From an uncultured Candidatus Saccharibacteria bacterium (GTDB lineage: Bacteria; Patescibacteriota; Minisyncoccia; Phycocordibacterales; JACOZG01): a stretch of 64,000 nucleotides of DNA. Numbering within the stretch: position 1 is the stretch's first letter; each line of letters opens with the position of its first letter. Where the stretch lies: the NCBI GenBank assembly GCA_964651115.1, contig CAZYXJ010000001.1:213077-277076 (forward strand). The letters are read 5' to 3'. Below the pieces are notes generated by a model. That model was not told the origin of the DNA and did not search any database. It saw only the letters and a program-made list of their open reading frames with translations. This document shows, piece by piece, positions 1,425-15,605 of the stretch. The translations under genes were made by a program, and so were the position numbers.

Positions 1425-2759
1425 TTATAAATTTTGCAAAGGATTAATCATATTCTCCTGAATATCGGCCGCCTTGGTCATTACCTGATTGCCATAGAAG
1501 GTGTTGGCTGGAGCCCGGTCATCGCAAGGCCGGCCAGAATAATAGCGACAAGCCGCGTTACGCTCGGCCGTAAAACCGCCCGCTCCAGCACCCAAATCCG
1601 CCAAGTACAAAGAGGAGGCCATAAAAGCGTCGGCTGGCTCCCAGGGGTCGGCCGTCTTTTTACCTAAAGCGCTGGCGATCCTCGTTTTAAACAATTCCCA
1701 GGTCGAAGGGATAAATTGCGCTGGCCCCATGGCGCCACCCCAACCGCCGCCCCACGGACACGAGAGGGGCAGACCCTCCGGGCTAATTCCTAACTCACCG
1801 ACGATCCGCAAGAACGGCGCGTGGTCGCGAGTCGGCTTCATGATGGCTTGCCACTGCTTTTCCGGTGGATCGCCAGGACGATTACAGGTCCCGACGTTCT
1901 GGCCCAGGTTGGACTCTTGAGTCAGAATGGCCAGAACTAAAGCGGCCCGGACCCCCGTCTTTTCGGCGGCGGCCGTGGCATATTCCAAAGCCTTACCAAA
2001 CGGGATCGCCGCCGAGTCTCGCAGGGCAAAGAGCGCGGCCCTAATCTGAGCGGCGCGCTTTTGGCGTTCGGCTAAAATCGTCTTGTACGCCGCCTCTTGA
2101 GTCTTGTTAACGCTGAGCAAAACTTGCTTGTCTTTCTCTTTGGCTTGGATAGTTCGCTGTTCGGCCTCAATTAACTTCTGCGCGTCGAGCTCCTTATTTT
2201 TGCGTTCTTCGAGGGCCGCCTTCTCGCGCCGAGCATCCTCTTGGGCTCCGCGCATCTCGGTAAAAGCATCGTGAATTGAACGTTGCACGAAAGCAAAATC
2301 ATCTACGTCAGTAAAAAAATCAGACAACTGACTGTTGTCGAGCAAAATTTCGACAAAAGAAGCGTTGTCAAAGTCGCGGGTCTTACGCAATAACTCGCCG
2401 AGCGAACCCTGCTCCCGTTTAATTTTTTGGGCCAAAGTTTCGATCTTACCTTCGCGCGCGACAATATCGTCCGCCAAACGCGAGACCTGAACTTGCTTGG
2501 CCTTGATACTAGTCTGCGCTCGCTGGATCTGCGACTTAAGCAAATCAATTTCGCCTTGGACGGTAGCAGTATCGCGCTGTTTGGCTTGGAGCAACTTGGT
2601 CTGTTCGGCAATCGCCCGCTCCTCGGCCTCCAGCTCGGCCTGCAACCGCGCGCGACGCGCCTCAATCTCCTCCACACTCTGCGCGCCAACTGGCCGACTA
2701 ATCGCCACCGCGCCAGTTAGCGCCAACACCAACCCAAAAAAAATAATCCCCCGTCTCAT
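1425..2759 (-). CDS. Secreted coiled-coil protein with C-terminal lytic-transglycosylase (SLT/lysozyme-like) domain
   Basis: Signal peptide [19 protein letters not shown] at the internal Met (cat at 2757-2759). The upstream ORF extension is Arg-rich and implausible. There is a long heptad/coiled-coil middle region. The C-terminus carries ESNLGQ and [10 protein letters not shown] motifs typical of the SLT family. Confidence 0.6.
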
Positions 2760-2802
2760 GTGGGGATTATTATAACAAATTTCTCTCGGCTGGTAACGAG
2801 GA

Positions 2803-3438
2803 TTAGGCAGCCGTGGCGGCCTCCTCGCCCTCCTCCACCTTCTTACCCTTCTTCTCAACCTCGATGGCCGAGAGATCAACTGGCGCCGTCTCAATTGGCT
2901 CATCCTTCGCGACAGCAATCGAAGCCACCACCTCCTCCGGGGCACTGAGAACCGTCACATCTTTGGGTACGCTCAAGTCCGAAACCAAAATTTGGCTGTC
3001 CAAAGAAACTAATTTAGAAATATCAACCTCAATATCGTGAGGAATGTTCATTGGCAAAACTTCTACTTCCAATTCGTAAAGCACCTTAACCAAAGTACCA
3101 CCGAGATCCTTAACGGCGGAGGCCACGCCCTCGAAGCGGAGGGGCACATTAACCTTAACCGTCTTGGTCTTATCGACAGCGTAGAGATCGGCGTGCAGAG
3201 GCTCGCCGCTCACGGGATGAACCATCACGTCATGGATCAAAACGTCGGCCTTAACCTCGCCGGCATCAATCGTTACCATACTCGACTCACCAGCCGTGGC
3301 GAGCAATTTTTTGAACTCCTTAGTATTAAGAAGAAGAGAGGTGGTCTCCTGCTTAGGACCATACAAAACCGCAGGCATTTGACCAGCTAATCGGACACTC
3401 TTGAGCTTTTTGCCGAAGACAGAACGCTTTTCGGCCAT
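2803..3438 (-). CDS. rplY: 50S ribosomal protein L25 / general stress protein Ctc form
   Basis: MAEKRSVFGKKLKSVRLAGQMPAVLYG... matches the bL25 N-domain plus the Ctc C-terminal extension. Start taken at the internal Met 3436-3438. Confidence 0.8.
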   Translation of the reverse strand: MAEKRSVFGKKLKSVRLAGQMPAVLYGPKQETTSLLLNTKEFKKLLATAGESSMVTIDAGEVKADVLIHDVMVHPVSGEPLHADLYAVDKTKTVKVNVPLRFEGVASAVKDLGGTLVKVLYELEVEVLPMNIPHDIEVDISKLVSLDSQILVSDLSVPKDVTVLSAPEEVVASIAVAKDEPIETAPVDLSAIEVEKKGKKVEEGEEAATAA

Positions 3439-4487: not shown

Positions 4488-5504
4488 TCATAAGGATTCA
4501 ATTTTTCTTCTAAGTTTCCAACCATTGCCGTGATCCAATAAACCCAAATATGATTGAACTGTCTCCGACTTAACTCCTGCTTTATTTATCCGTTTAAACA
4601 TTCGTCGTCTTGTCATAGTCCGCAGAACACGATGTTTTGAAAATTGGACCCACCCTAGAAAATCAACACCAGAGGAAACTCGCTCGAGAAGAATTTTGTT
4701 GGGATGAAACTCTAACTTCAGTTTCTCTTTTAAGAATTCGGCAATTTCGGGTGCGAGCTTGACTAGACGATCTTTATCGCGACCAACAATGACAAAATCG
4801 TCCGCGTAGCGAAGATAATGCCTCGCTTTCAAGCTATGCTTCATAAACTGATCGAGCTCGTTTAGATAAACATTGGCAAAAAGTTGGGAAGTAAGATTAC
4901 CGAGAGGCAGGCCCTGGCCGGGTACGCCCGAATTAAAACTGTAAATTATTTTCTCGATCAGCCAGATAATACCCTGGTCAGGAATCTTTTTCCTCAATAA
5001 ATCGATCAGTATTGCTCGATCGATGCTAGCAAAAAATTTGCGAATGTCACACTTCAAAACCCAAACCATTTTGGTGTTGTTTCGAGAAAGCTTGGCCGTA
5101 ATTAGGGCAAATTTTTTAATTGCTTTGTGAGTACCTTTTCCGTTGCGACAAGAATAGGAGTCAGAAATAAATCTTGGATGGAAAAACCAGTAAAGCCGGC
5201 GATAAACGGCTCGATGTAAAACCCGATCACGCACGGATGCCTTATGGATCACTCGCCGCTTGGGGTCGTTAATGATGAAAACTTTGTAAGCCGAATGATG
5301 GTATGTCTTAGCCACTAAATCCTCGTGAAGTGAAATAATGTTGGCCATCAGGTTTCGTTCAAATTCCTGCACGTCTTTTCGATTCCGTTTCCCTCTCACG
5401 AATTCCTGCCAGGCCGCGAGCAGATTAGCGAGCGAGACGATATTGTCATATTTTATGGTAGGTGCTATCTTGGCCGAAAATGCTACCGGTAAGCCCCCCC
5501 CCAA
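4488..5504 (-). CDS. Diversity-generating retroelement reverse transcriptase
   Basis: 338 aa RT with catalytic YADD (RYADDFVIVG). The N-terminal YDNIVSLANLLAAWQEF...RGKRNRKDV region is typical of DGR RTs. Motif 4 reads LPLGNLTSQ, the [I/L]GxxxSQ variant that distinguishes DGR RTs from group II intron RTs (QGxxxSP). It lies next to a TR/VR pair. The only in-frame start before the conserved region is TTG at 5502-5504, inside a 9-nt G homopolymer. Confidence 0.85.
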   Translation of the reverse strand: MGGGLPVAFSAKIAPTIKYDNIVSLANLLAAWQEFVRGKRNRKDVQEFERNLMANIISLHEDLVAKTYHHSAYKVFIINDPKRRVIHKASVRDRVLHRAVYRRLYWFFHPRFISDSYSCRNGKGTHKAIKKFALITAKLSRNNTKMVWVLKCDIRKFFASIDRAILIDLLRKKIPDQGIIWLIEKIIYSFNSGVPGQGLPLGNLTSQLFANVYLNELDQFMKHSLKARHYLRYADDFVIVGRDKDRLVKLAPEIAEFLKEKLKLEFHPNKILLERVSSGVDFLGWVQFSKHRVLRTMTRRRMFKRINKAGVKSETVQSYLGLLDHGNGWKLRRKIESL

Positions 5505-5513
5505 CCGAAGTTA

Positions 5514-5906
5514 TTGCCTCTTTTGCAAAAGGTGAAGATTGCATACTTATTGTGGTATGAATATTACCAAATTTTGCCAAAAACACATCGACACTCACTC
5601 GGTAAGAAAATTGATACGTTGTGGATCGAGATTATCGAAGCCATTGCGATTGCAAGCTATTTAGGCAAAGGAGAGAAACAACCCTGGGTGAGATTGGCAA
5701 TAAGGAAAACTGATACACTCAAGATATTGCTCTTGGTACTTTGGGAAACTAAATCACTGGATAATAAAAAATATATCGCCCTGTCTTTACCCCTGGAGGA
5801 AATTGGCAAAATGCTTGGCGGTTGGAATGGGCAAATTTTGAGACAATTACAACAAGAACAATTAAAGAAAAACTCTCCCACCAAAGCAGGAGAGAAAATG
5901 AAGTGA
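5514..5906 (+). CDS. Candidate DGR accessory variability determinant (Avd-like four-helix-bundle protein, '23S rRNA intervening sequence protein' family), atypically on the opposite strand
   Basis: 130 aa, basic and helix-rich. The pattern ...LPKTHRHSLGKKIDTLWIEIIEAIAIASYL...LAIRKTDTLKILLLVLWETKSL...LEEIGKMLGGW resembles the fPK-e-yGL--Qi-RAavSIpsNIAEG ... iA-gS--El-tql-la--l-yi ... eigKML-gL pattern of Avd/four-helix-bundle proteins. It ends 2 nt before the TR. Caveats: TTG start, no clear RBS, and opposite orientation to the RT and target. Confidence 0.4.
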   Translation: MPLLQKVKIAYLLWYEYYQILPKTHRHSLGKKIDTLWIEIIEAIAIASYLGKGEKQPWVRLAIRKTDTLKILLLVLWETKSLDNKKYIALSLPLEEIGKMLGGWNGQILRQLQQEQLKKNSPTKAGEKMK

Positions 5907-5907
5907 G

Positions 5908-6029
5908 TTGCGACGAAACGCAAACCAGTCATTGGAGTTACCGTAGTTCTCGAGCCAGTTGAGGTTCGCCTTGCGCCTCGAGTCGTTCCACCAAACGTTG
6001 CACGCCTGGCGATCGCCATCGAAGAAATA
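5908..6029 (-). repeat. DGR template repeat (TR), coding strand = minus
   Basis: The 122-bp stretch at 5908-6029 aligns with 6408-6529 at an offset of exactly 500 bp. All 22 mismatches fall on plus-strand T in this copy (minus-strand A). The first 24 bp are identical (IMH-like invariant 3' end). Translated in the VR frame, the TR reads Asn (AAY) codons where the VR varies. Confidence 0.85.
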
Positions 6030-6388
6030 GTGTAAGGTGTCATCCGAGTCACCATCTCTTGTCGCCAACACAGGACGATTCGAGATCGAATATTATTCGG
6101 CATCTATAATGCCCTAGCACTCTACACCAAGTAGCTTCATTTTTTATTGAAGGATCTGCGTAAATCCTCCGTCGGAAATCGTAATCGCCGACGCTCTCAA
6201 TTTACAGACACTGGTTTCAGTAGCGAGCAACCCTGATCGCCCACATATTCACCTACTCCCGTCTTTAATTTTAGCAAAGAAAAATCCCACACGCGAAGTG
6301 TAGGATTCCATTGTTTACGTTTTGGATTACGTTTGGCAAAAATTGCCGAAGAGCAAAATCCAAAGGATCTGAAAAATCTCCAAGGACC

Positions 6389-7048
6389 TTAGGCCTGAGG
6401 ACGAAGCTTGCGACGAAACGCAAACCAGTCACCGGAGCGACCGCAGACCTCGAGCCAGCAGAGGCGCGCCCCGCGCCCCGAGTCGCCCCACCAAACGCGG
6501 CACGCCAGGCGAACGCCAACGAAGAAACACTCCTTGGTGGCCACCACATACATCGGGTCTAATCCCAGTTCCCGATGAAGAGTGGGATAATGTTCGCCAA
6601 TAGCGAACACTTCTCGTGGGTCAGTGCGCTCGAGTCCGAACTGCTCCGCCCAAGCGATAGCCTTGCTCCAGTTGCCACCCCGTGGGAAGTTGAGAAGGAT
6701 GATTTCCTCCTCTTCTTCCACACCTTCTCCCGGCGGATACTGGTCGCCCACCTTCCGGACGTTGTAGTCCAAAGGAGTGTTGGGACCGGCGGCATTCAGC
6801 GCTTCCGACCACTTGCGTCCTTTGTTGAAGCGAACGCGGATCGTGTGGATGCGAGCGCCCGGTGGCGGGATAAGCGGTAAGCCAATGGTGATCGGTAGCC
6901 CAGCCTCGATTCCATCGAGAACACGACCCAGAGTTCCATCGTCAAGTGCCGTTTGCAGGCGGGCTCGACTCATCTTTTTGTCCCGTACCATTTGAACAAA
7001 CTGTCTTCCCTGACCATCGGTCGCGGTTACAACCTTTTCAGTGGTCAT
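6389..7048 (-). CDS. DGR variable (target) protein, C-type-lectin/FGE-like fold with C-terminal VR; no signal peptide
   Basis: 219 aa. Reverse-complement ATG at 7046-7048 with an AAAGG RBS 7 nt upstream. The C-terminus ...CFFVGVRLACRVWWGDSGRGARLCWLEVCGRSGDWFAFRRKLRPQA contains the VR and ends 17 nt after it. The corresponding TR translation is ...ACNVWWNDSRRKANLNWLENYGNSNDWFAFRRN. Confidence 0.8.
   Translation of the reverse strand: MTTEKVVTATDGQGRQFVQMVRDKKMSRARLQTALDDGTLGRVLDGIEAGLPITIGLPLIPPPGARIHTIRVRFNKGRKWSEALNAAGPNTPLDYNVRKVGDQYPPGEGVEEEEEIILLNFPRGGNWSKAIAWAEQFGLERTDPREVFAIGEHYPTLHRELGLDPMYVVATKECFFVGVRLACRVWWGDSGRGARLCWLEVCGRSGDWFAFRRKLRPQA
6408..6529 (-). repeat. DGR variable repeat (VR) inside the 3' end of the target gene
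   Basis: Partner of the TR. 100/122 identities, with 22/22 differences at TR adenines (A->G, C or T on the coding strand). Confidence 0.85.
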
Positions 7049-7203
7049 AACTATACCTTTCTTAACATGCCCCCTTTAAGCCCCAGCCACAAGCTGAGAC
7101 CAGAAGCGGGCAAAATGCGTGTTTTACATCAAAGAACTACATTTATAATATACACTCATTTATGCCGAGTTGTCAAGCCGGCTGAATCTGCTAGAATATG
7201 GCT

Positions 7204-8067
7204 CTAAATGTGGCTAAAAAGTTTTAATTTTTGCTCAACGAGCTTGGTCATTGCCGCCAGGGCTGGCTTTAAGAATTTGCAAGGCGCAACCTCATCAGGA
7301 TTTTCTTGCAACGATAGTTTAAGGCCGTCGCGGTAAGCCACGCGCAGCTCGGTATTGATGTGGACAACGGCAACACCACCCTCGATCGCGCCACGAAAAT
7401 CGCTCTCGCTATTACCCGAGCCGCCATGCAGAACCAGAGGCACACCCGCCGCCGCCCGGATGGCGGCAATACGCGCCAGATCGAGCTTGGGATCAGGTCG
7501 GCCGCGCAACATCCCGTGGATGTTGCCGACGGCTGGCGCCAAAAGGTCAACGCCCGTGGCCACCACAAACTCGGCGGCCTGCTCGGGCTTAGTCAGATCG
7601 TCACCGAGCGCGGCGCCAGCCGGCACCTCGTCGAGCACCTTCGACGAGGTGCCAATATAACCCAGCTCGCCCTCCACCAGCACGTCCCGACCACTAGAAT
7701 GCGCGTACTCCACCACCTTACGAGCGGTCGCCACATTCTCCTCAAACGGTAATTGCGCGCCGTCAAAAATAACCGCGTCAAAACCAGCGTCAATGGCCTC
7801 GACTGCTCGCTCGTAAGAATAAGTATGGTCGGCATTAAGAAAAATCGGGTAGGCAAATTGTTCGCGCAGACTCTTAACCAACGTCGCGATCTGCCGAACG
7901 CCAATAAAGTCTCGCTCGCCCTCCGAAACGCCGATGATCACCGGCAGAGAGAGAGCGCGCGCGGCATTAAATACTGCCCAGACCGCATTAGAATCCGAAA
8001 TATTAAAATGCCCCACCGCCACCCGACGCTCCGCCGCCTCTAGAATGTATTCTCGTAACGTTTTCAT
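7204..8067 (-). CDS. fba: Fructose-bisphosphate aldolase, class II (FbaA / tagatose-bisphosphate aldolase family)
   Basis: MKTLREYILEAAERRVAVGHFN... with the VLHGGSG motif and class II metal-binding His positions. Internal Met start (cat 8065-8067) gives 288 aa; the upstream 43-aa extension is unlikely. Confidence 0.85.
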   Translation of the reverse strand: MKTLREYILEAAERRVAVGHFNISDSNAVWAVFNAARALSLPVIIGVSEGERDFIGVRQIATLVKSLREQFAYPIFLNADHTYSYERAVEAIDAGFDAVIFDGAQLPFEENVATARKVVEYAHSSGRDVLVEGELGYIGTSSKVLDEVPAGAALGDDLTKPEQAAEFVVATGVDLLAPAVGNIHGMLRGRPDPKLDLARIAAIRAAAGVPLVLHGGSGNSESDFRGAIEGGVAVVHINTELRVAYRDGLKLSLQENPDEVAPCKFLKPALAAMTKLVEQKLKLFSHI

Positions 8068-8109
8068 GCCAAAAGTATACCACAGCCACTGCATGATATA
8101 CTGGAGGAC

Positions 8110-9108
8110 ATGGACACGACAGAACAATTTGACTTTATCGCCATCGGCGACATTACCACCGACGCTTTTATCCGAATTAAAGAGGCCGATATCCATTGCC
8201 AGGTCAACAAAGCGGATTGCCAGATCTGCATGCGCTTCGGCGACAAGATCCCCTATGAGTCCGTCACCGTCGTCCCGGCAGTAGGCAACTCGCCCAACGC
8301 CGCCACCAGCGCTGCTCGGCTTGGACTCAAGACCGCCCTCGTCACCAATCTAGGCGCGGATCGCGACGGCGATGAGGCGCTCGCCGAGCTAACCAAAAAC
8401 GGCATCAACGCCACCTTCGTCGCTCGCCACGCCGACAAAAAAACTAATTACCACTACGTCCTGTGGTATCACGACGACCGCACCATCCTCATCAAACACG
8501 AAGAGTATCCTTACCGCTTACCCGAGATCGGCACGCCCCGCTGGATCTATCTCAGCTCGCTGGGTGAAAATTCTCTGCCCTTCCAACACGAGATCGCTGA
8601 TTATGTGAAAAAAAATCCCTTAATCAAACTCGCCTTCCAGCCGGGCACTTTCCAGATTAAAAATAGCCGTGAGCTGGCCGACGTCTATGCCGTGACGGAA
8701 ATCTTTTTCTGTAACGTTGAGGAGGCCAAACGCATTCTCGGCACCACGGCAGGCGAAATAAAAGAGCTTCTCACTGGTCTCGCCGCCCTCGGCCCCAAGA
8801 TCGTGATCATTACTGATGGCGCGCGCGGCGCTTATGCCTACTCGGCCGAAACGGGCGCCTGGTTTATGCCACCTTATCCTGATCCCAAACCACCCCTAGA
8901 GCGCACTGGCGCCGGGGACTCTTTTGCCTCAACCGTGACGGCCGCTCTCGCGCTTGGCAAAACTCTGCCCGAAGCCCTAGCGTGGGGACCAATCAACTCG
9001 ATGTCGGTTGTCCAACACGTCGGCGCGCAAGCCGGCCTCCTGCCTCGATCGGAATTGGAACGCTACTTAGGCCAAGCGCCGACAGATTACACCGCCCGAC
9101 CGCTGTAA
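8110..9108 (+). CDS. PfkB-family carbohydrate kinase (ribokinase / fructokinase-like)
   Basis: 332 aa with N-terminal GD(I/A)xxD and C-terminal TGAGDSF motifs of the ribokinase superfamily. GGAGG RBS before the ATG. Confidence 0.8.
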   Translation: MDTTEQFDFIAIGDITTDAFIRIKEADIHCQVNKADCQICMRFGDKIPYESVTVVPAVGNSPNAATSAARLGLKTALVTNLGADRDGDEALAELTKNGINATFVARHADKKTNYHYVLWYHDDRTILIKHEEYPYRLPEIGTPRWIYLSSLGENSLPFQHEIADYVKKNPLIKLAFQPGTFQIKNSRELADVYAVTEIFFCNVEEAKRILGTTAGEIKELLTGLAALGPKIVIITDGARGAYAYSAETGAWFMPPYPDPKPPLERTGAGDSFASTVTAALALGKTLPEALAWGPINSMSVVQHVGAQAGLLPRSELERYLGQAPTDYTARPL

Positions 9109-9127
9109 AAAATTTGGCATTAAAAAA

Positions 9128-9158
9128 CCCGTCGCTCCCAAGCGACGGGTTTTGGGTT
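9128..9158 (+). terminator. Rho-independent terminator downstream of the PfkB kinase gene
   Basis: cccgtcgc / gcgacggg 8-bp stem with a 6-nt loop, followed by ttttgggtt. Confidence 0.6.
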
Positions 9159-9569
9159 GGCGGAAGAGTGCTTCTTTCCCAACCGCCATTTCTTCTCCGG
9201 AAAGCACCTACAACGAGACGATCAGGACACCACTATGTCCATCAACCTGCAAGAGACGGATCACCTCCCCCAAATCCAAAACCTCCATGACCAGCAAACC
9301 GTCGGGTTTGAACCTGACGCGCAAACCCTGCCCCGACCGATCAGTCACCCGGAGAATGTCGCAGAACGTTACTCCCGCGAACACCTCCGGAAACTGAACT
9401 CGGCACTGATGGAAATCCTCCTCGGTCGCCAGCCGGCAACCGAAGGGCTGACACATGGATTGGCCCCATTCTCCCAGACAGTGGCCCACATCAACTTGCC
9501 CATACACGCACACTTGGTAGACGCAAGTCGGTGCCAGAACGCTCCCACTCATACAGGTCTCCGTTCCTG

Positions 9570-9624
9570 TTACCAAAGAACAATCGCCTTACCAAAGAAC
9601 AATCGCCAGTCGACCGCCGACTGG
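9570..9624. repeat. Two perfect 19-bp tandem repeats (ttaccaaagaacaatcgcc) followed by a 7-bp-stem inverted repeat (ccagtcg-accgc-cgactgg)
   Basis: Read directly from the sequence. It lies in the ~560-bp low-coding-quality gap between the PfkB kinase gene and the transketolase C-half, just 3' of the tkt stop on the minus strand. Confidence 0.5.
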
Positions 9625-9671
9625 CGCAAAAAGGAGAATAGCACACTCTCCCATCATTGACAAACTGTGGA

Positions 9672-10691
9672 TTACTGTCGCTTGCGAGCAATCGCCCGGC
9701 CGACCGCGGCCTTAATACTGCCCACGCCTAAACCATAATGATTAAGCAGTTCGTCGGGCGTACCAGACTGACCAAATTGATCATCAATCCCCACCCGGAC
9801 CAGCGGCACCGGGCATTGTTCGCCCAAAACCTCCGCCACCGCGCCACCCAAGCCGCCCGCGCGCTGATGCTCTTCCACCGTGATCACGGCGCCAGCGCCA
9901 GCTGCCCAGACCACCGCCTCCGTATCCAGGGGCTTAATCGTATGCATATTAATCACCGCTACTTCCGTCCCCGCCTCAGCCAGTTCCGCCGCGGCCGTCA
10001 AAGCAGAATAGACCATCTGACCACAGGCAATAATCGTTACTTGCGGCTTTTCTGGTTGGCGGAGCACATTGGCCCGACCAATTAAAAAGGGTGACTCCTC
10101 CGTTGTCACCACCGGCGACTTTTCGCGCGCGAGACGCAGATAAGCGGGGCCAACATAAGACGCCAGCGCCAGCGTCGCCTTGCGCGCCTCAATCGCGTCG
10201 GCCGGTACCACCACCGTCATCCGGGGTACGACACGCATGATCGCAATATCTTCGATCGCCTGATGCGTCCCACCATCTGGCCCCACGGAAACGCCAGCAT
10301 GCGAACCAACCACCTTAACGTTGCGATCGTTGTAACAAATCGTCGTCCGAATTTGTTCCCAATTACGACCAGGACTAAACATCGCGTACGAAGTTAAAAA
10401 AGGGATCTTGCCCATCGCCGCCATGCCGCTGGCGACGCTCGCCAAGTTCTGCTCCGCCACGCCAATCTCCACGTAACGCTCGGGAAATTTGTTTTTAAAT
10501 AAATGCATCTGCGTTGACTCTACTAAGTCGGCACACAAACCAACCACTTCGGCATTGGCCTCCGCGGCGGCGAGCAACCCTTCACCAAAGCCCTTGCGAA
10601 TCGGCACTCGCTCCACGTCGAGCTTAAAAAGTTTGGGATTTAATTTTTGACCTTCAACTAAATTATTCATGTTCGCCTTTGATCCGACCAC
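9672..10691 (-). CDS. Transketolase, C-terminal section (pyrimidine-binding and C-terminal domains)
   Basis: 339 aa aligning to the TktB-type half of split transketolases. It overlaps the N-terminal half gene by ~30 nt. Confidence 0.85.
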   Translation of the reverse strand: MVGSKANMNNLVEGQKLNPKLFKLDVERVPIRKGFGEGLLAAAEANAEVVGLCADLVESTQMHLFKNKFPERYVEIGVAEQNLASVASGMAAMGKIPFLTSYAMFSPGRNWEQIRTTICYNDRNVKVVGSHAGVSVGPDGGTHQAIEDIAIMRVVPRMTVVVPADAIEARKATLALASYVGPAYLRLAREKSPVVTTEESPFLIGRANVLRQPEKPQVTIIACGQMVYSALTAAAELAEAGTEVAVINMHTIKPLDTEAVVWAAGAGAVITVEEHQRAGGLGGAVAEVLGEQCPVPLVRVGIDDQFGQSGTPDELLNHYGLGVGSIKAAVGRAIARKRQ

Positions 10692-11529
10692 TTAGACTGC
10701 GTAATTCTTTTAACGCCACCACTCCTTCCTCAGCGTTGGGCGGCTTGCCGTGCCACTCAAACTGTCGCTCAAACTGCGGTACGCCCTTAGACGGAATCGT
10801 GTGCGCGATAATGCAACTCGGCCGATTGAAAACCGCCTTGGCATGACCCACCGCTTCGGCAATTGATTCGAAGTTATGACCGTCAATATCTTGAACGTGC
10901 CAACCAAAGCTCTCCCACTTCTCCTTAAGCGGCTCCAGCGGCATCACCGTCTCAGTAAAGCCGTCGATCTGGATATTGTTGCGGTCAACGATCACAATTA
11001 AATTATGCAAAGCCTCGCGGCCGGCGAGCATCGCCGCCTCCCAGATCTGGCCGCAATTAAGTTCACCGTCGCCCGTGAGACAGTAGAAAAAGCGGTCACT
11101 CCGCCGGCCGCGATCCAGCCGGTCAGCCAAGGCCATCCCCACGGCCTGCGAGAGGCCCGAGCCCAGCGGGCCGGAGCTCGTCTCGAGCGCCGGGAGAAAC
11201 TCCCGGTGGGGATGGCCTTGCAAACGCGAACCAAACTTACGCAAAGTGACCAATTCCGAAACCGGAAAGTAACCAGCGTGGGCCATCGTCGCGTAAAGCA
11301 CTGGCGCGATGTGACCATTAGACAAAATCAAGCGATCGCGATCCTCCCAACGCGGATCCTCGGGCCGATGCTTTAACAAATGAAAATAAAGAGCGGTAAA
11401 AATGTCGGTCATGCCCAGCGGTCCTGCCGTGTGGCCAGAACCAGCCGCCAAAAGCATCTCAATAATCGACTGGCGGATCTGCTGCGCCTGCCGTTCTAAA
11501 AATTTTACTTTTTCGTCGTAAAGGATCAC
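10663..11529 (-). CDS. Transketolase, N-terminal section (TPP-binding)
   Basis: 288 aa with TPP-binding GDG...N motif (CLTGDGELNCGQIWEAAMLAG) and HTAGPLG. Confidence 0.85.
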   Translation of the reverse strand: MILYDEKVKFLERQAQQIRQSIIEMLLAAGSGHTAGPLGMTDIFTALYFHLLKHRPEDPRWEDRDRLILSNGHIAPVLYATMAHAGYFPVSELVTLRKFGSRLQGHPHREFLPALETSSGPLGSGLSQAVGMALADRLDRGRRSDRFFYCLTGDGELNCGQIWEAAMLAGREALHNLIVIVDRNNIQIDGFTETVMPLEPLKEKWESFGWHVQDIDGHNFESIAEAVGHAKAVFNRPSCIIAHTIPSKGVPQFERQFEWHGKPPNAEEGVVALKELRSLSGRIKGEHE

Positions 11530-14652: not shown

Positions 14653-15102
14653 ATGTTTAGATCACTTCTCCGACTGGATAGGCACGTCATCAGCTTTGCT
14701 AATCACCACGGCCTCCTCCTGGCTCGCCTGGCCTTGGCGCTCGTCTATGGTTGGTTTGGCATTTTAAAATTAGTCGGCGCCAGTCCCGCCAACCCCCTCG
14801 TCGACGCCCTGCTCGGAAAAACTTTGCCCTTTCTCACCTTTGGCCAATTTATTATTATTCTCGGCTGGTGGGAGGTGGCGATTGCTATCGCCTTTCTCAT
14901 CCCGCGACTGGAGCGCGTCGCCATCCTCTTGGTGGCGCCCCATCTCGTCGTCACAGCGATGCCCCTCTTTCTGCTCCCCTCCCTCACTTGGCAAAGTAAC
15001 TGGATCCCCACCCTCGAAGGTCAATACATCATCAAAAACGCCGTGCTCGCGGCACTGGCGCTTTCGGTTGCTGGTCACTTAGAACCGCTAAATCGTCGTT
15101 AG
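14653..15102 (+). CDS. Small integral membrane protein (DoxX-like?)
   Basis: 149 aa with four predicted TM helices. Weak resemblance to the DoxX family. Confidence 0.4.
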   Translation: MFRSLLRLDRHVISFANHHGLLLARLALALVYGWFGILKLVGASPANPLVDALLGKTLPFLTFGQFIIILGWWEVAIAIAFLIPRLERVAILLVAPHLVVTAMPLFLLPSLTWQSNWIPTLEGQYIIKNAVLAALALSVAGHLEPLNRR

Positions 15103-15605
15103 CCCTTGATCTCGGGAAGATTTTCGGTCGCCAAAAAGGTGACGCGCAAGGGATTGCCGTCCGGACCCTCAAGCAAAGCATCCTCCACCACACTAAAGCG
15201 ATCATCGCCGTTATCGGCATAAAGCTCAACGAAATAATTTTTACCCTCCTCCAACTTTTCGATCAGATCAATCGTCCCTGCTCGCGTGTTGGCGTCAAAA
15301 TAGCCCGCCCCAATCACCGAACCGACGACGCCACTATCGTTGCGGCGAACAACCACCCAACCGCCCTCAGGCAAATCAACTTGCGAAACGTAGACGCTCG
15401 CCGCTGGCAATTGCAAGCCCACCGTAATCGTCGCCGTCCGGCCAGCCCGGATCGCCGCCGCGCGGTCGAAAGCGCTACCTACCGCGGCGGAGTTATCGTT
15501 GGCGCCGTCGCGAGTCGAGAGCCAGACAATCGCCCCGATCGCAATAATAATCACCACCACAATACCAATCACCACCTTGCGTGCGCCCGTCTCATTGGGT
15601 TCCAT
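15099..15605 (-). CDS. Hypothetical membrane-anchored protein
   Basis: 168 aa, N-terminal TM anchor (VVIGIVVVIIIAIGAIVWL) then a soluble domain. Confidence 0.4.
   Translation of the reverse strand: MEPNETGARKVVIGIVVVIIIAIGAIVWLSTRDGANDNSAAVGSAFDRAAAIRAGRTATITVGLQLPAASVYVSQVDLPEGGWVVVRRNDSGVVGSVIGAGYFDANTRAGTIDLIEKLEEGKNYFVELYADNGDDRFSVVEDALLEGPDGNPLRVTFLATENLPEIKG

Follow-up and report, generated by a model that had tools for sequence, protein, structure and literature searches.

The 64,000-nucleotide stretch considered here (the window) belongs to contig CAZYXJ010000001.1 of an uncultured Candidatus Saccharibacteria bacterium and carries a diversity-generating retroelement (DGR). The target of this element is a small, complete gene at positions 6389–7048 on the minus strand, encoding a variable protein of 219 amino acids that runs from MTTEKVV... 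at the N-terminus to ...DWFAFRRKLRPQA at the C-terminus. Its limits have been set from the open reading frame and its translation, the stop codons upstream, and 106 homologues. The variable repeat (VR; 6408–6527, minus strand) lies at the 3′ end of the gene, and the template repeat (TR; 5908–6027, minus strand) is located ~500 nt downstream of it. The accessory gene avd (5514–5906, plus strand) and the reverse transcriptase (RT) gene (4488–5504, minus strand) complete the cassette. The product of 6389–7048 is almost certainly the variable protein of a chromosomal DGR, with a C-type-lectin-like (CLec-like) fold.

The VR comprises residues 175–214 of the 219 (40 codons) and is defined by a 120-nt ungapped match to the TR, a repeat with 26 adenines whose translation would read FFDGDRQACNVWWNDSRRKANLNWLENYGNSNDWFAFRR. 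Over these 120 nt the two repeats differ at 21 positions, and all 21 mismatches fall on TR adenines, so that substitution affects 21 of the 26 TR adenines and no non-A position. Adenines make up 26/120 (22%) of the TR, and by our own calculation the chance of all 21 mismatches falling on them is ~1e-14. The absence of non-adenine drift between VR and TR argues that the VR has been rewritten recently, and, judged from the repeats, the cassette has apparently been active in the recent past. The TR contains 16 A-containing codons, seven of them AAY, which gives ~1e14 possible protein variants. The final 24 nt of the VR (6408–6431) are identical to the TR, resemble an initiation of mutagenic homing (IMH) sequence and encode DWFAFRR(K), and the divergence begins directly after them. 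The IMH-like 20-nt 3′ end is present twice in the window, once in the VR and once in the TR, and a search with this 20-mer revealed no further DGR targets in the 64 kb.

The RT is intact (338 amino acids; Pfam RVT_1, E 9.8e-24), and its LGNLTSQ and YADD sequences satisfy the DGR-type motif 4 ([ILV]GxxxSQ) and the YxDD catalytic motif, respectively. It is 51–60% identical to the RTs adjoining homologous targets. The avd product has been assigned with NCBIfam DivGenRetAVD (E 1.6e-14; 54 bits, below the curated cut-off of 80 bits) and Pfam bAvd (E 1.6e-09; 38.6 bits, below the curated cut-off of 40 bits). The order TR (6027–5908, minus), avd (5514–5906, plus) and RT (5504–4488, minus) corresponds to architecture B3 of Wu 2018, a TR-(avd)-RT layout found in 90% of that study's candidate phyla radiation (CPR) set (PMC5758913). 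The adenine-only mismatches, the intact RT and the avd gene together bear out the initial annotation of this DNA, made from its letters and open reading frames, in which 6389–7048 was taken for a DGR target.

The spacing within the cassette is tight. The starts of avd and RT are 9 bp apart, and the avd stop is 2 nt from the end of the TR. Since avd lies on the opposite strand between TR and RT, any read-through transcript from TR to RT would be antisense to the whole of avd. A promoter-like site for avd is present at 5443–5471 (plus strand), inside the RT coding region. A pattern scan also revealed a terminator-like hairpin with a T-run at 5873–5894 (minus strand), 14 nt past the TR and antisense to the 3′ end of avd. 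This hairpin could terminate a short TR RNA, or belong to a spacer structure for priming of the complementary DNA (cDNA). Past the VR, a terminator-like stem-loop was located by pattern scan at 6281–6309 (minus strand), ~80 nt beyond the target stop codon and ~100 nt beyond the VR, and was recovered also in a DNA fold of 6270–6430. Neither the pattern scan nor the DNA fold gave a GC-rich hairpin or cruciform directly after the VR; such a structure is found downstream of the VR in 34% of DGRs and is not universal (Wu 2018, PMC5758913).

The start of the target gene is well defined. The nearest upstream in-frame stop codon is at 7076–7078, ten codons before the target ATG, rather than at 7049–7060 as had been given in the initial annotation, and none of the nine codons between this stop and the ATG is ATG, GTG or TTG. 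The aldolase gene ends at 7204, and the 155-nt gap from there to the target ATG contains stops in all three frames; a frameshift would therefore be unable to add a hidden leader to the target. A sigma-70-like promoter site is located in the same gap at 7147–7176 on the minus strand (TTGACA, 18 nt, TATATT; 11 of 12 matches in a consensus scan), and should be read as a pattern match only. The target shares its start with 106 homologues of ~200–230 amino acids, the closest of which is 68% identical. It aligns with an MSK..VT..Q start, hydrophilic like its own, that over 100 homologues share across independent assemblies. The stops in all frames and the common start confirm the earlier view that 6389–7048 is not the 3′ part of a longer gene.

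Export signals have been assessed with Kyte-Doolittle hydropathy windows together with a scan for lipobox and Tat motifs, which is a heuristic test. The highest 19-residue window of the target scores 1.34 and covers residues 43–61, a linker with D, E and multiple P and G residues. Within residues 1–40, the highest 8-residue hydropathy is 0.18, and ten of the first 30 residues are charged. By this test the target has no lipobox, Tat motif, sorting motif, hydrophobic h-region or membrane helix. The same test flags two exported proteins of the same window, with scores of 3.3 and 1.95. These positive controls, a DUF7282 protein (15099–15605) and a protein with an SLT domain (in 1425–2945), have obvious hydrophobic leaders. 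The absence of a signal peptide and of a transmembrane segment, already pointed out in the initial annotation, is thus upheld by a negative test with positive controls from the same DNA. As far as the sequence can tell, the absence of a classical export signal is unambiguous, with no hydrophobic stretch at all. In the longest open reading frame of the SLT-domain protein (1425–2945, minus strand), the ~60 N-terminal residues are extremely arginine-rich and are followed by an internal Met and a typical signal peptide; the internal Met is probably the true start.

An AlphaFold2 (AF2) model of the target, built on 35 homologues, has a mean predicted local distance difference test (pLDDT) score of 91.4. 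In the model, three short helices are followed by a proline/glycine-rich linker and an alpha/beta domain of residues 65–213 (6410–6856, minus strand), which is the C-type-lectin-like core, and the VR is carried by the last four strands of this domain. A Foldseek search with the model gave no significant match in PDB or BFVD, suggesting that the predicted fold is a divergent CLec variant. The structural neighbors of the target are all extracellular lectin-like domains, with a Bdellovibrio fiber-tip domain at the top. Structure prediction and fold comparison therefore agree with the lectin-fold variable C-terminus proposed in the initial annotation. Sequence searches of the target against Pfam, NCBIfam, PHROGs and PDB sequences gave no match, and a Pfam/NCBIfam scan at E ≤ 0.1 or E ≤ 1 assigned it to no family, including FGE-sulfatase and DUF1566. 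These two families were also without a match at E ≤ 1 in 35 family members.

Several motifs can be placed on this model. The acidic EEEEE run occupies residues 111–115, GGNWS residues 124–128 and WFAFRR residues 208–213, so that the first two precede the VR and the third stands at the end of the variable C-terminus, as had been described. GGNWS had also been called conserved-looking, which is true in part: among the homologues N120, G124 and G125 are conserved at ≥90%, whereas GGNWS and the acidic stretch are only moderately conserved overall, the latter reading E.EE in the consensus. The target has a conserved cysteine pair, C174 and C183, that is missing from some relatives (P0205 and P0106, for example). 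The hydrophobic core aside, conservation in the family is highest in NAAGPNTP..YNVRKVGDQYPP, which extends from residues 85–92 (window positions 6773–6796, minus strand) to about residue 106. This segment is mostly loop in the model, and its conservation exceeds the apparent need of the scaffold. Possible roles for it are as a support for the VR or as a second interaction site that does not vary.

The N-terminal part of the target, residues 1–50 (6899–7048, minus strand), is a hydrophilic three-helix module with helices at 11–23, 28–36 and 39–48 in the AF2 secondary structure. Its family consensus is VT..Q...VRKMAN.KGV....FQ.ALDDG...RFLD.LK. An origin of this module from HU/IHF-like proteins has been considered and is unsupported. 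The best PDB profile match of the N-terminal 72 residues is the HU-like African swine fever virus protein pA104R (E 0.13, weak), but hhalign gives a probability of 8.6% against two HU sequences. No family member matched Pfam Bac_DNA_binding, and the window and the loci of the relatives contain no HU gene from which a better profile could be built. When the module profile was searched on other proteins, the only match was P0275, a truncated member of the same family; for a profile of 50 residues the E-value threshold was very strict, which makes this a weak negative.

The family to which the target belongs is large. When 1.84 billion representative proteins were searched with a profile, 572 clusters were returned at E ≤ 1e-3, 193 of them at E ≤ 1e-30; nearly all of the 572 have lengths of 160–260 amino acids. 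In the top 150 representative clusters, 149 are 134–257 amino acids long and have no added domains. Two builds occur, one with the N-terminal helical module and the core (~205–225 amino acids) and the other with the core only (~160–180 amino acids). A hydrophobic N-terminus is absent in ~95% of 248 sampled family sequences, and ~5 sequences have a genuine hydrophobic N-terminal anchor. In P0146 the helical module is replaced by RRRK and then a hydrophobic stretch, in P0190 by a signal-peptide-like segment ending ..ALGC, and in P0227 by a long membrane helix. P0205 (429 amino acids) is a multi-pass protein in which the lectin-like core is preceded by several membrane helices, as predicted, and by a coiled-coil-like spacer.

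Variation within one group of close relatives has been examined in P0106, the representative of a 48-member cluster at 90%, with 13 members aligned. These proteins are 91–98% identical to P0106 and show only two VR haplotypes. One haplotype is distinguished by an insertion of two residues within the VR, and elsewhere the differences are only scattered. The pattern is suggestive of change focused on the VR and falls short of proof of ongoing activity.

All 25 related genome loci are from Patescibacteria, including Taylorbacteria, Vogelbacteria, Wildermuthbacteria and Paceibacterota. The layout of target, TR, (avd) and RT is repeated at 12 related loci, with A-biased TR/VR differences and an inverted avd. 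RT, avd and TR are all absent nearby at ~7 loci with adequate flanks: at L001/L007, L011, L014, L016, L017 and L023 neither RT nor avd nor a matching TR is present within 6–10 kb. Family members that lack an RT and a TR may be trans-targeted or retired targets. L003 and L013, which belong to one genome, have an avd-RT pair just upstream, yet no TR that matches the family gene, so the DGR there probably serves a different target. Apart from avd and RT, no neighbor gene that could act as anchor, secretion partner or effector is conserved across 23 loci. Other neighbor "clusters" have been dismissed as overlapping spurious open reading frames, and DEAD-box helicases near two loci have been dismissed as partners on account of their not being conserved elsewhere.

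In the window, the cassette is flanked by genes for a 2-hydroxyacid dehydrogenase and a fructose-bisphosphate aldolase. A PfkB kinase, a split transketolase, ribosomal protein genes and pentose-phosphate pathway genes are found nearby. This is a housekeeping setting and not a prophage. The transketolase is divided into two overlapping genes (9672–10691 and 10663–11529, both on the minus strand), one with the N-terminal thiamine pyrophosphate-binding part and the other with the pyrimidine-binding and C-terminal parts.

How the cassette works can be proposed from the DGR mechanism established in the systems of Bordetella phage BPP-1 and Legionella. The TR would be transcribed, and RT and Avd would copy the TR RNA into cDNA, misincorporating opposite adenines. 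The cDNA would then replace the VR and rewrite 16 codons on the ligand-binding face, leaving the scaffold and the invariant DWFAFRR strand unchanged. The target would be made as a soluble protein outside the classical export routes and would function in the cytoplasm as a diversified binder, for which the N-terminal three-helix module may provide an oligomerization or partner-docking handle. The absence of a Sec, Tat or lipoprotein signal, a membrane segment or a sorting motif, which the target has in common with ~95% of its family, argues for a soluble protein that is not classically exported. On these sequence features, it is very probable that the target is not exported by Sec, and somewhat probable that it acts in the cytoplasm.

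Several observations weigh against a cytoplasmic site of action. The localization has been judged from absent signals, by hydropathy heuristics. The CLec-fold DGR targets of known function, such as Mtd and surface lipoproteins like TvpA, are extracellular, and contact with host cells is believed to be a requirement for CPR bacteria. The target has no attached effector or signaling domain; a cytoplasmic sensor would need a partner, and none is conserved nearby. About one third of the family loci have no RT or TR nearby, which indicates that the function of the family is not strictly tied to ongoing diversification. The rare anchored relatives indicate that the fold is compatible with an extracellular role, and judging from their sequences the lectin-like domain would be extracellular in at least two of P0146, P0190, P0227 and P0205.

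These anchored proteins, in which a signal or anchor stands in place of the N-terminal helical module, also speak for the strongest alternative, in which the target is displayed on the surface or released by a route that needs no classical signal, and attaches the episymbiont to variable surfaces of hosts or particles. Such a protein could leave the cell by leaderless export, or its three-helix module could dock on an exported or anchored partner. The extracellular nature of all its structural neighbors, headed by the Bdellovibrio fiber-tip domain, points in the same direction. Most cellular DGR targets have a membrane segment or signal peptide plus adhesion domains (Roux 2021), and clade 5F DGRs of CPR/DPANN have been suggested to mediate host-cell interactions (Doré 2024, PMC10907252). 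On the other hand, the target and ~95% of the family are without an export signal, whereas exported proteins of the same genome carry ordinary hydrophobic ones. No carrier, anchor or secretion system is encoded by a conserved neighbor gene, and the N-terminal module is seen on no other protein architecture at the very strict threshold used. We know of no leaderless export route established for Patescibacteria. On this evidence, surface display or release is possible but rather unlikely.

An origin from a phage, with the target as a virion-related or infection-related binder such as the remnant of a receptor-binding protein or a factor acting against the host, is improbable. It has been considered because one phage contig in IMG/VR (L030, IMGVR_UViG_3300032163_000619) encodes two core-only paralogues (7989–8510 and 8926–9669), and because DGRs are often phage-borne (Wu 2018, PMC5758913). 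The two paralogues share ~85% identity over the VR-like region. They are flanked by an endonuclease (phrog_93) and the large subunit of the terminase (phrog_2), among genes of DNA metabolism and not of the tail; no RT or TR is present within 16 kb on this contig. However, this is the only one of 2.9 million viral contigs confirmed to encode a relative in a pattern-based scan, the target has no PHROGs match, and no phage gene is conserved beside the 23 compared loci. The cassette itself sits among housekeeping genes, between the dehydrogenase and the aldolase. A still less probable alternative is that the missing signal peptide is an artifact, with the true start further upstream or a leader hidden by a sequencing error. 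It was raised on the ground that metagenome-assembled genomes can carry frameshifts, and nothing was found in its favor. An upstream extension is ruled out by the stops in all frames of the 155-nt intergenic region, which also holds the promoter-like site, and by the lack of a start codon between the stop at 7076–7078 and position 7048. Over 100 homologues, taken from independent assemblies, also begin at this position with the same hydrophilic sequence, and the artifact explanation is effectively refuted.

If the preferred reading of a soluble cytoplasmic binder held for the whole family, the 572 clusters would be free-standing, hypervariable, "intrabody-like" intracellular binders. Such proteins could be receptors in CPR bacteria and in some CPR phages that recognize changing phage or host-derived molecules, and they could signal via the conserved three-helix module to a partner encoded elsewhere. 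The family might, as an equally new possibility, represent an undescribed leaderless surface route specific to Patescibacteria. We regard this extension to the family, in either form, as doubtful.

DGRs are unusually abundant in CPR bacteria, and the ligand and site of action of their targets are an acknowledged question. The functions of CPR targets are very little known, and many CPR VRs have no fold assignment (Wu 2018, PMC5758913). CPR DGR targets are typically without membrane or other domains, and whether they are genuinely not membrane-bound "remains to be established" (Roux 2021). The present locus illustrates this last question without resolving it. As an example it offers an apparently recently active cassette, a complete target of 219 amino acids, a confident model and a large family that is mostly signal-less. 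The division between the signal-less majority and the few membrane-anchored members provides a handle for work on localization.

Compared with known systems, the target shares features with several groups of DGR variable proteins. AvpA from Nanoarchaeota (Handa 2016, PMC5006420) is likewise a small stand-alone protein of an ultra-small uncultivated organism, with a single CLec-fold domain, no other recognizable domain and some homologues outside DGRs. There is no detectable sequence similarity between AvpA and the target, and the target has the extra N-terminal three-helix module. The AvpA VR is roughly half the length and sits within the protein, with 46 residues after it, whereas the 40-residue VR of the target is C-terminal, as in Mtd and TvpA. 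Mtd of Bordetella phage BPP-1 and TvpA of Treponema denticola, which have a CLec fold of the formylglycine-generating enzyme (FGE) type, resemble the target in their C-terminal VR of ~40–45 residues, the invariant IMH-encoded end strand, the AAY-rich template codons and a diversity of ~1e13 to 1e20. Mtd forms the trimeric tip of a phage tail fiber and TvpA is a surface lipoprotein, and both act outside the cell. In contrast to these two proteins, the target has no signal and no FGE-sulfatase or DUF1566 Pfam match.

Predicted intracellular CLec variable proteins have been described in cyanobacteria, where most variable proteins are predicted to be cytosolic (Vallota-Eastman 2020, PMC7517822), and in Thiohalocapsa and other multicellular bacteria, with several Thiohalocapsa DGR targets predicted to be cytosolic (Doré 2024, PMC10907252). 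These proteins provide a precedent for the diversification of cytoplasmic binders by DGRs. In them the CLec domain is fused to a kinase, protease, STAND NTPase or other signaling domain, while the target has only its 50-residue helical module and no attached or neighboring effector.

The closest likeness is to the CPR DGR targets (RT "clade 2" of Roux 2021; B3 of Wu 2018). They have the same TR-(avd)-RT order with the target upstream and a C-terminal VR, they likewise lack Pfam domains, membrane segments and signal peptides, and the related loci are all from Patescibacteria. Nothing essential is different, and the target has been matched to no named protein cluster of Roux 2021 or "UVR" class of Wu 2018. 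The initial annotation had considered a cytoplasmic or non-classically exported target to be unusual. In this setting it is not, since the lack of a signal is the reported norm for CPR DGR targets and is seen in ~95% of the family. The target is therefore a typical instance of the known CPR pattern, in a large and mostly leaderless family of small lectin-like proteins, and what is new here is the confident prediction of a fold, together with a census of the family, for a DGR target of the CPR type.

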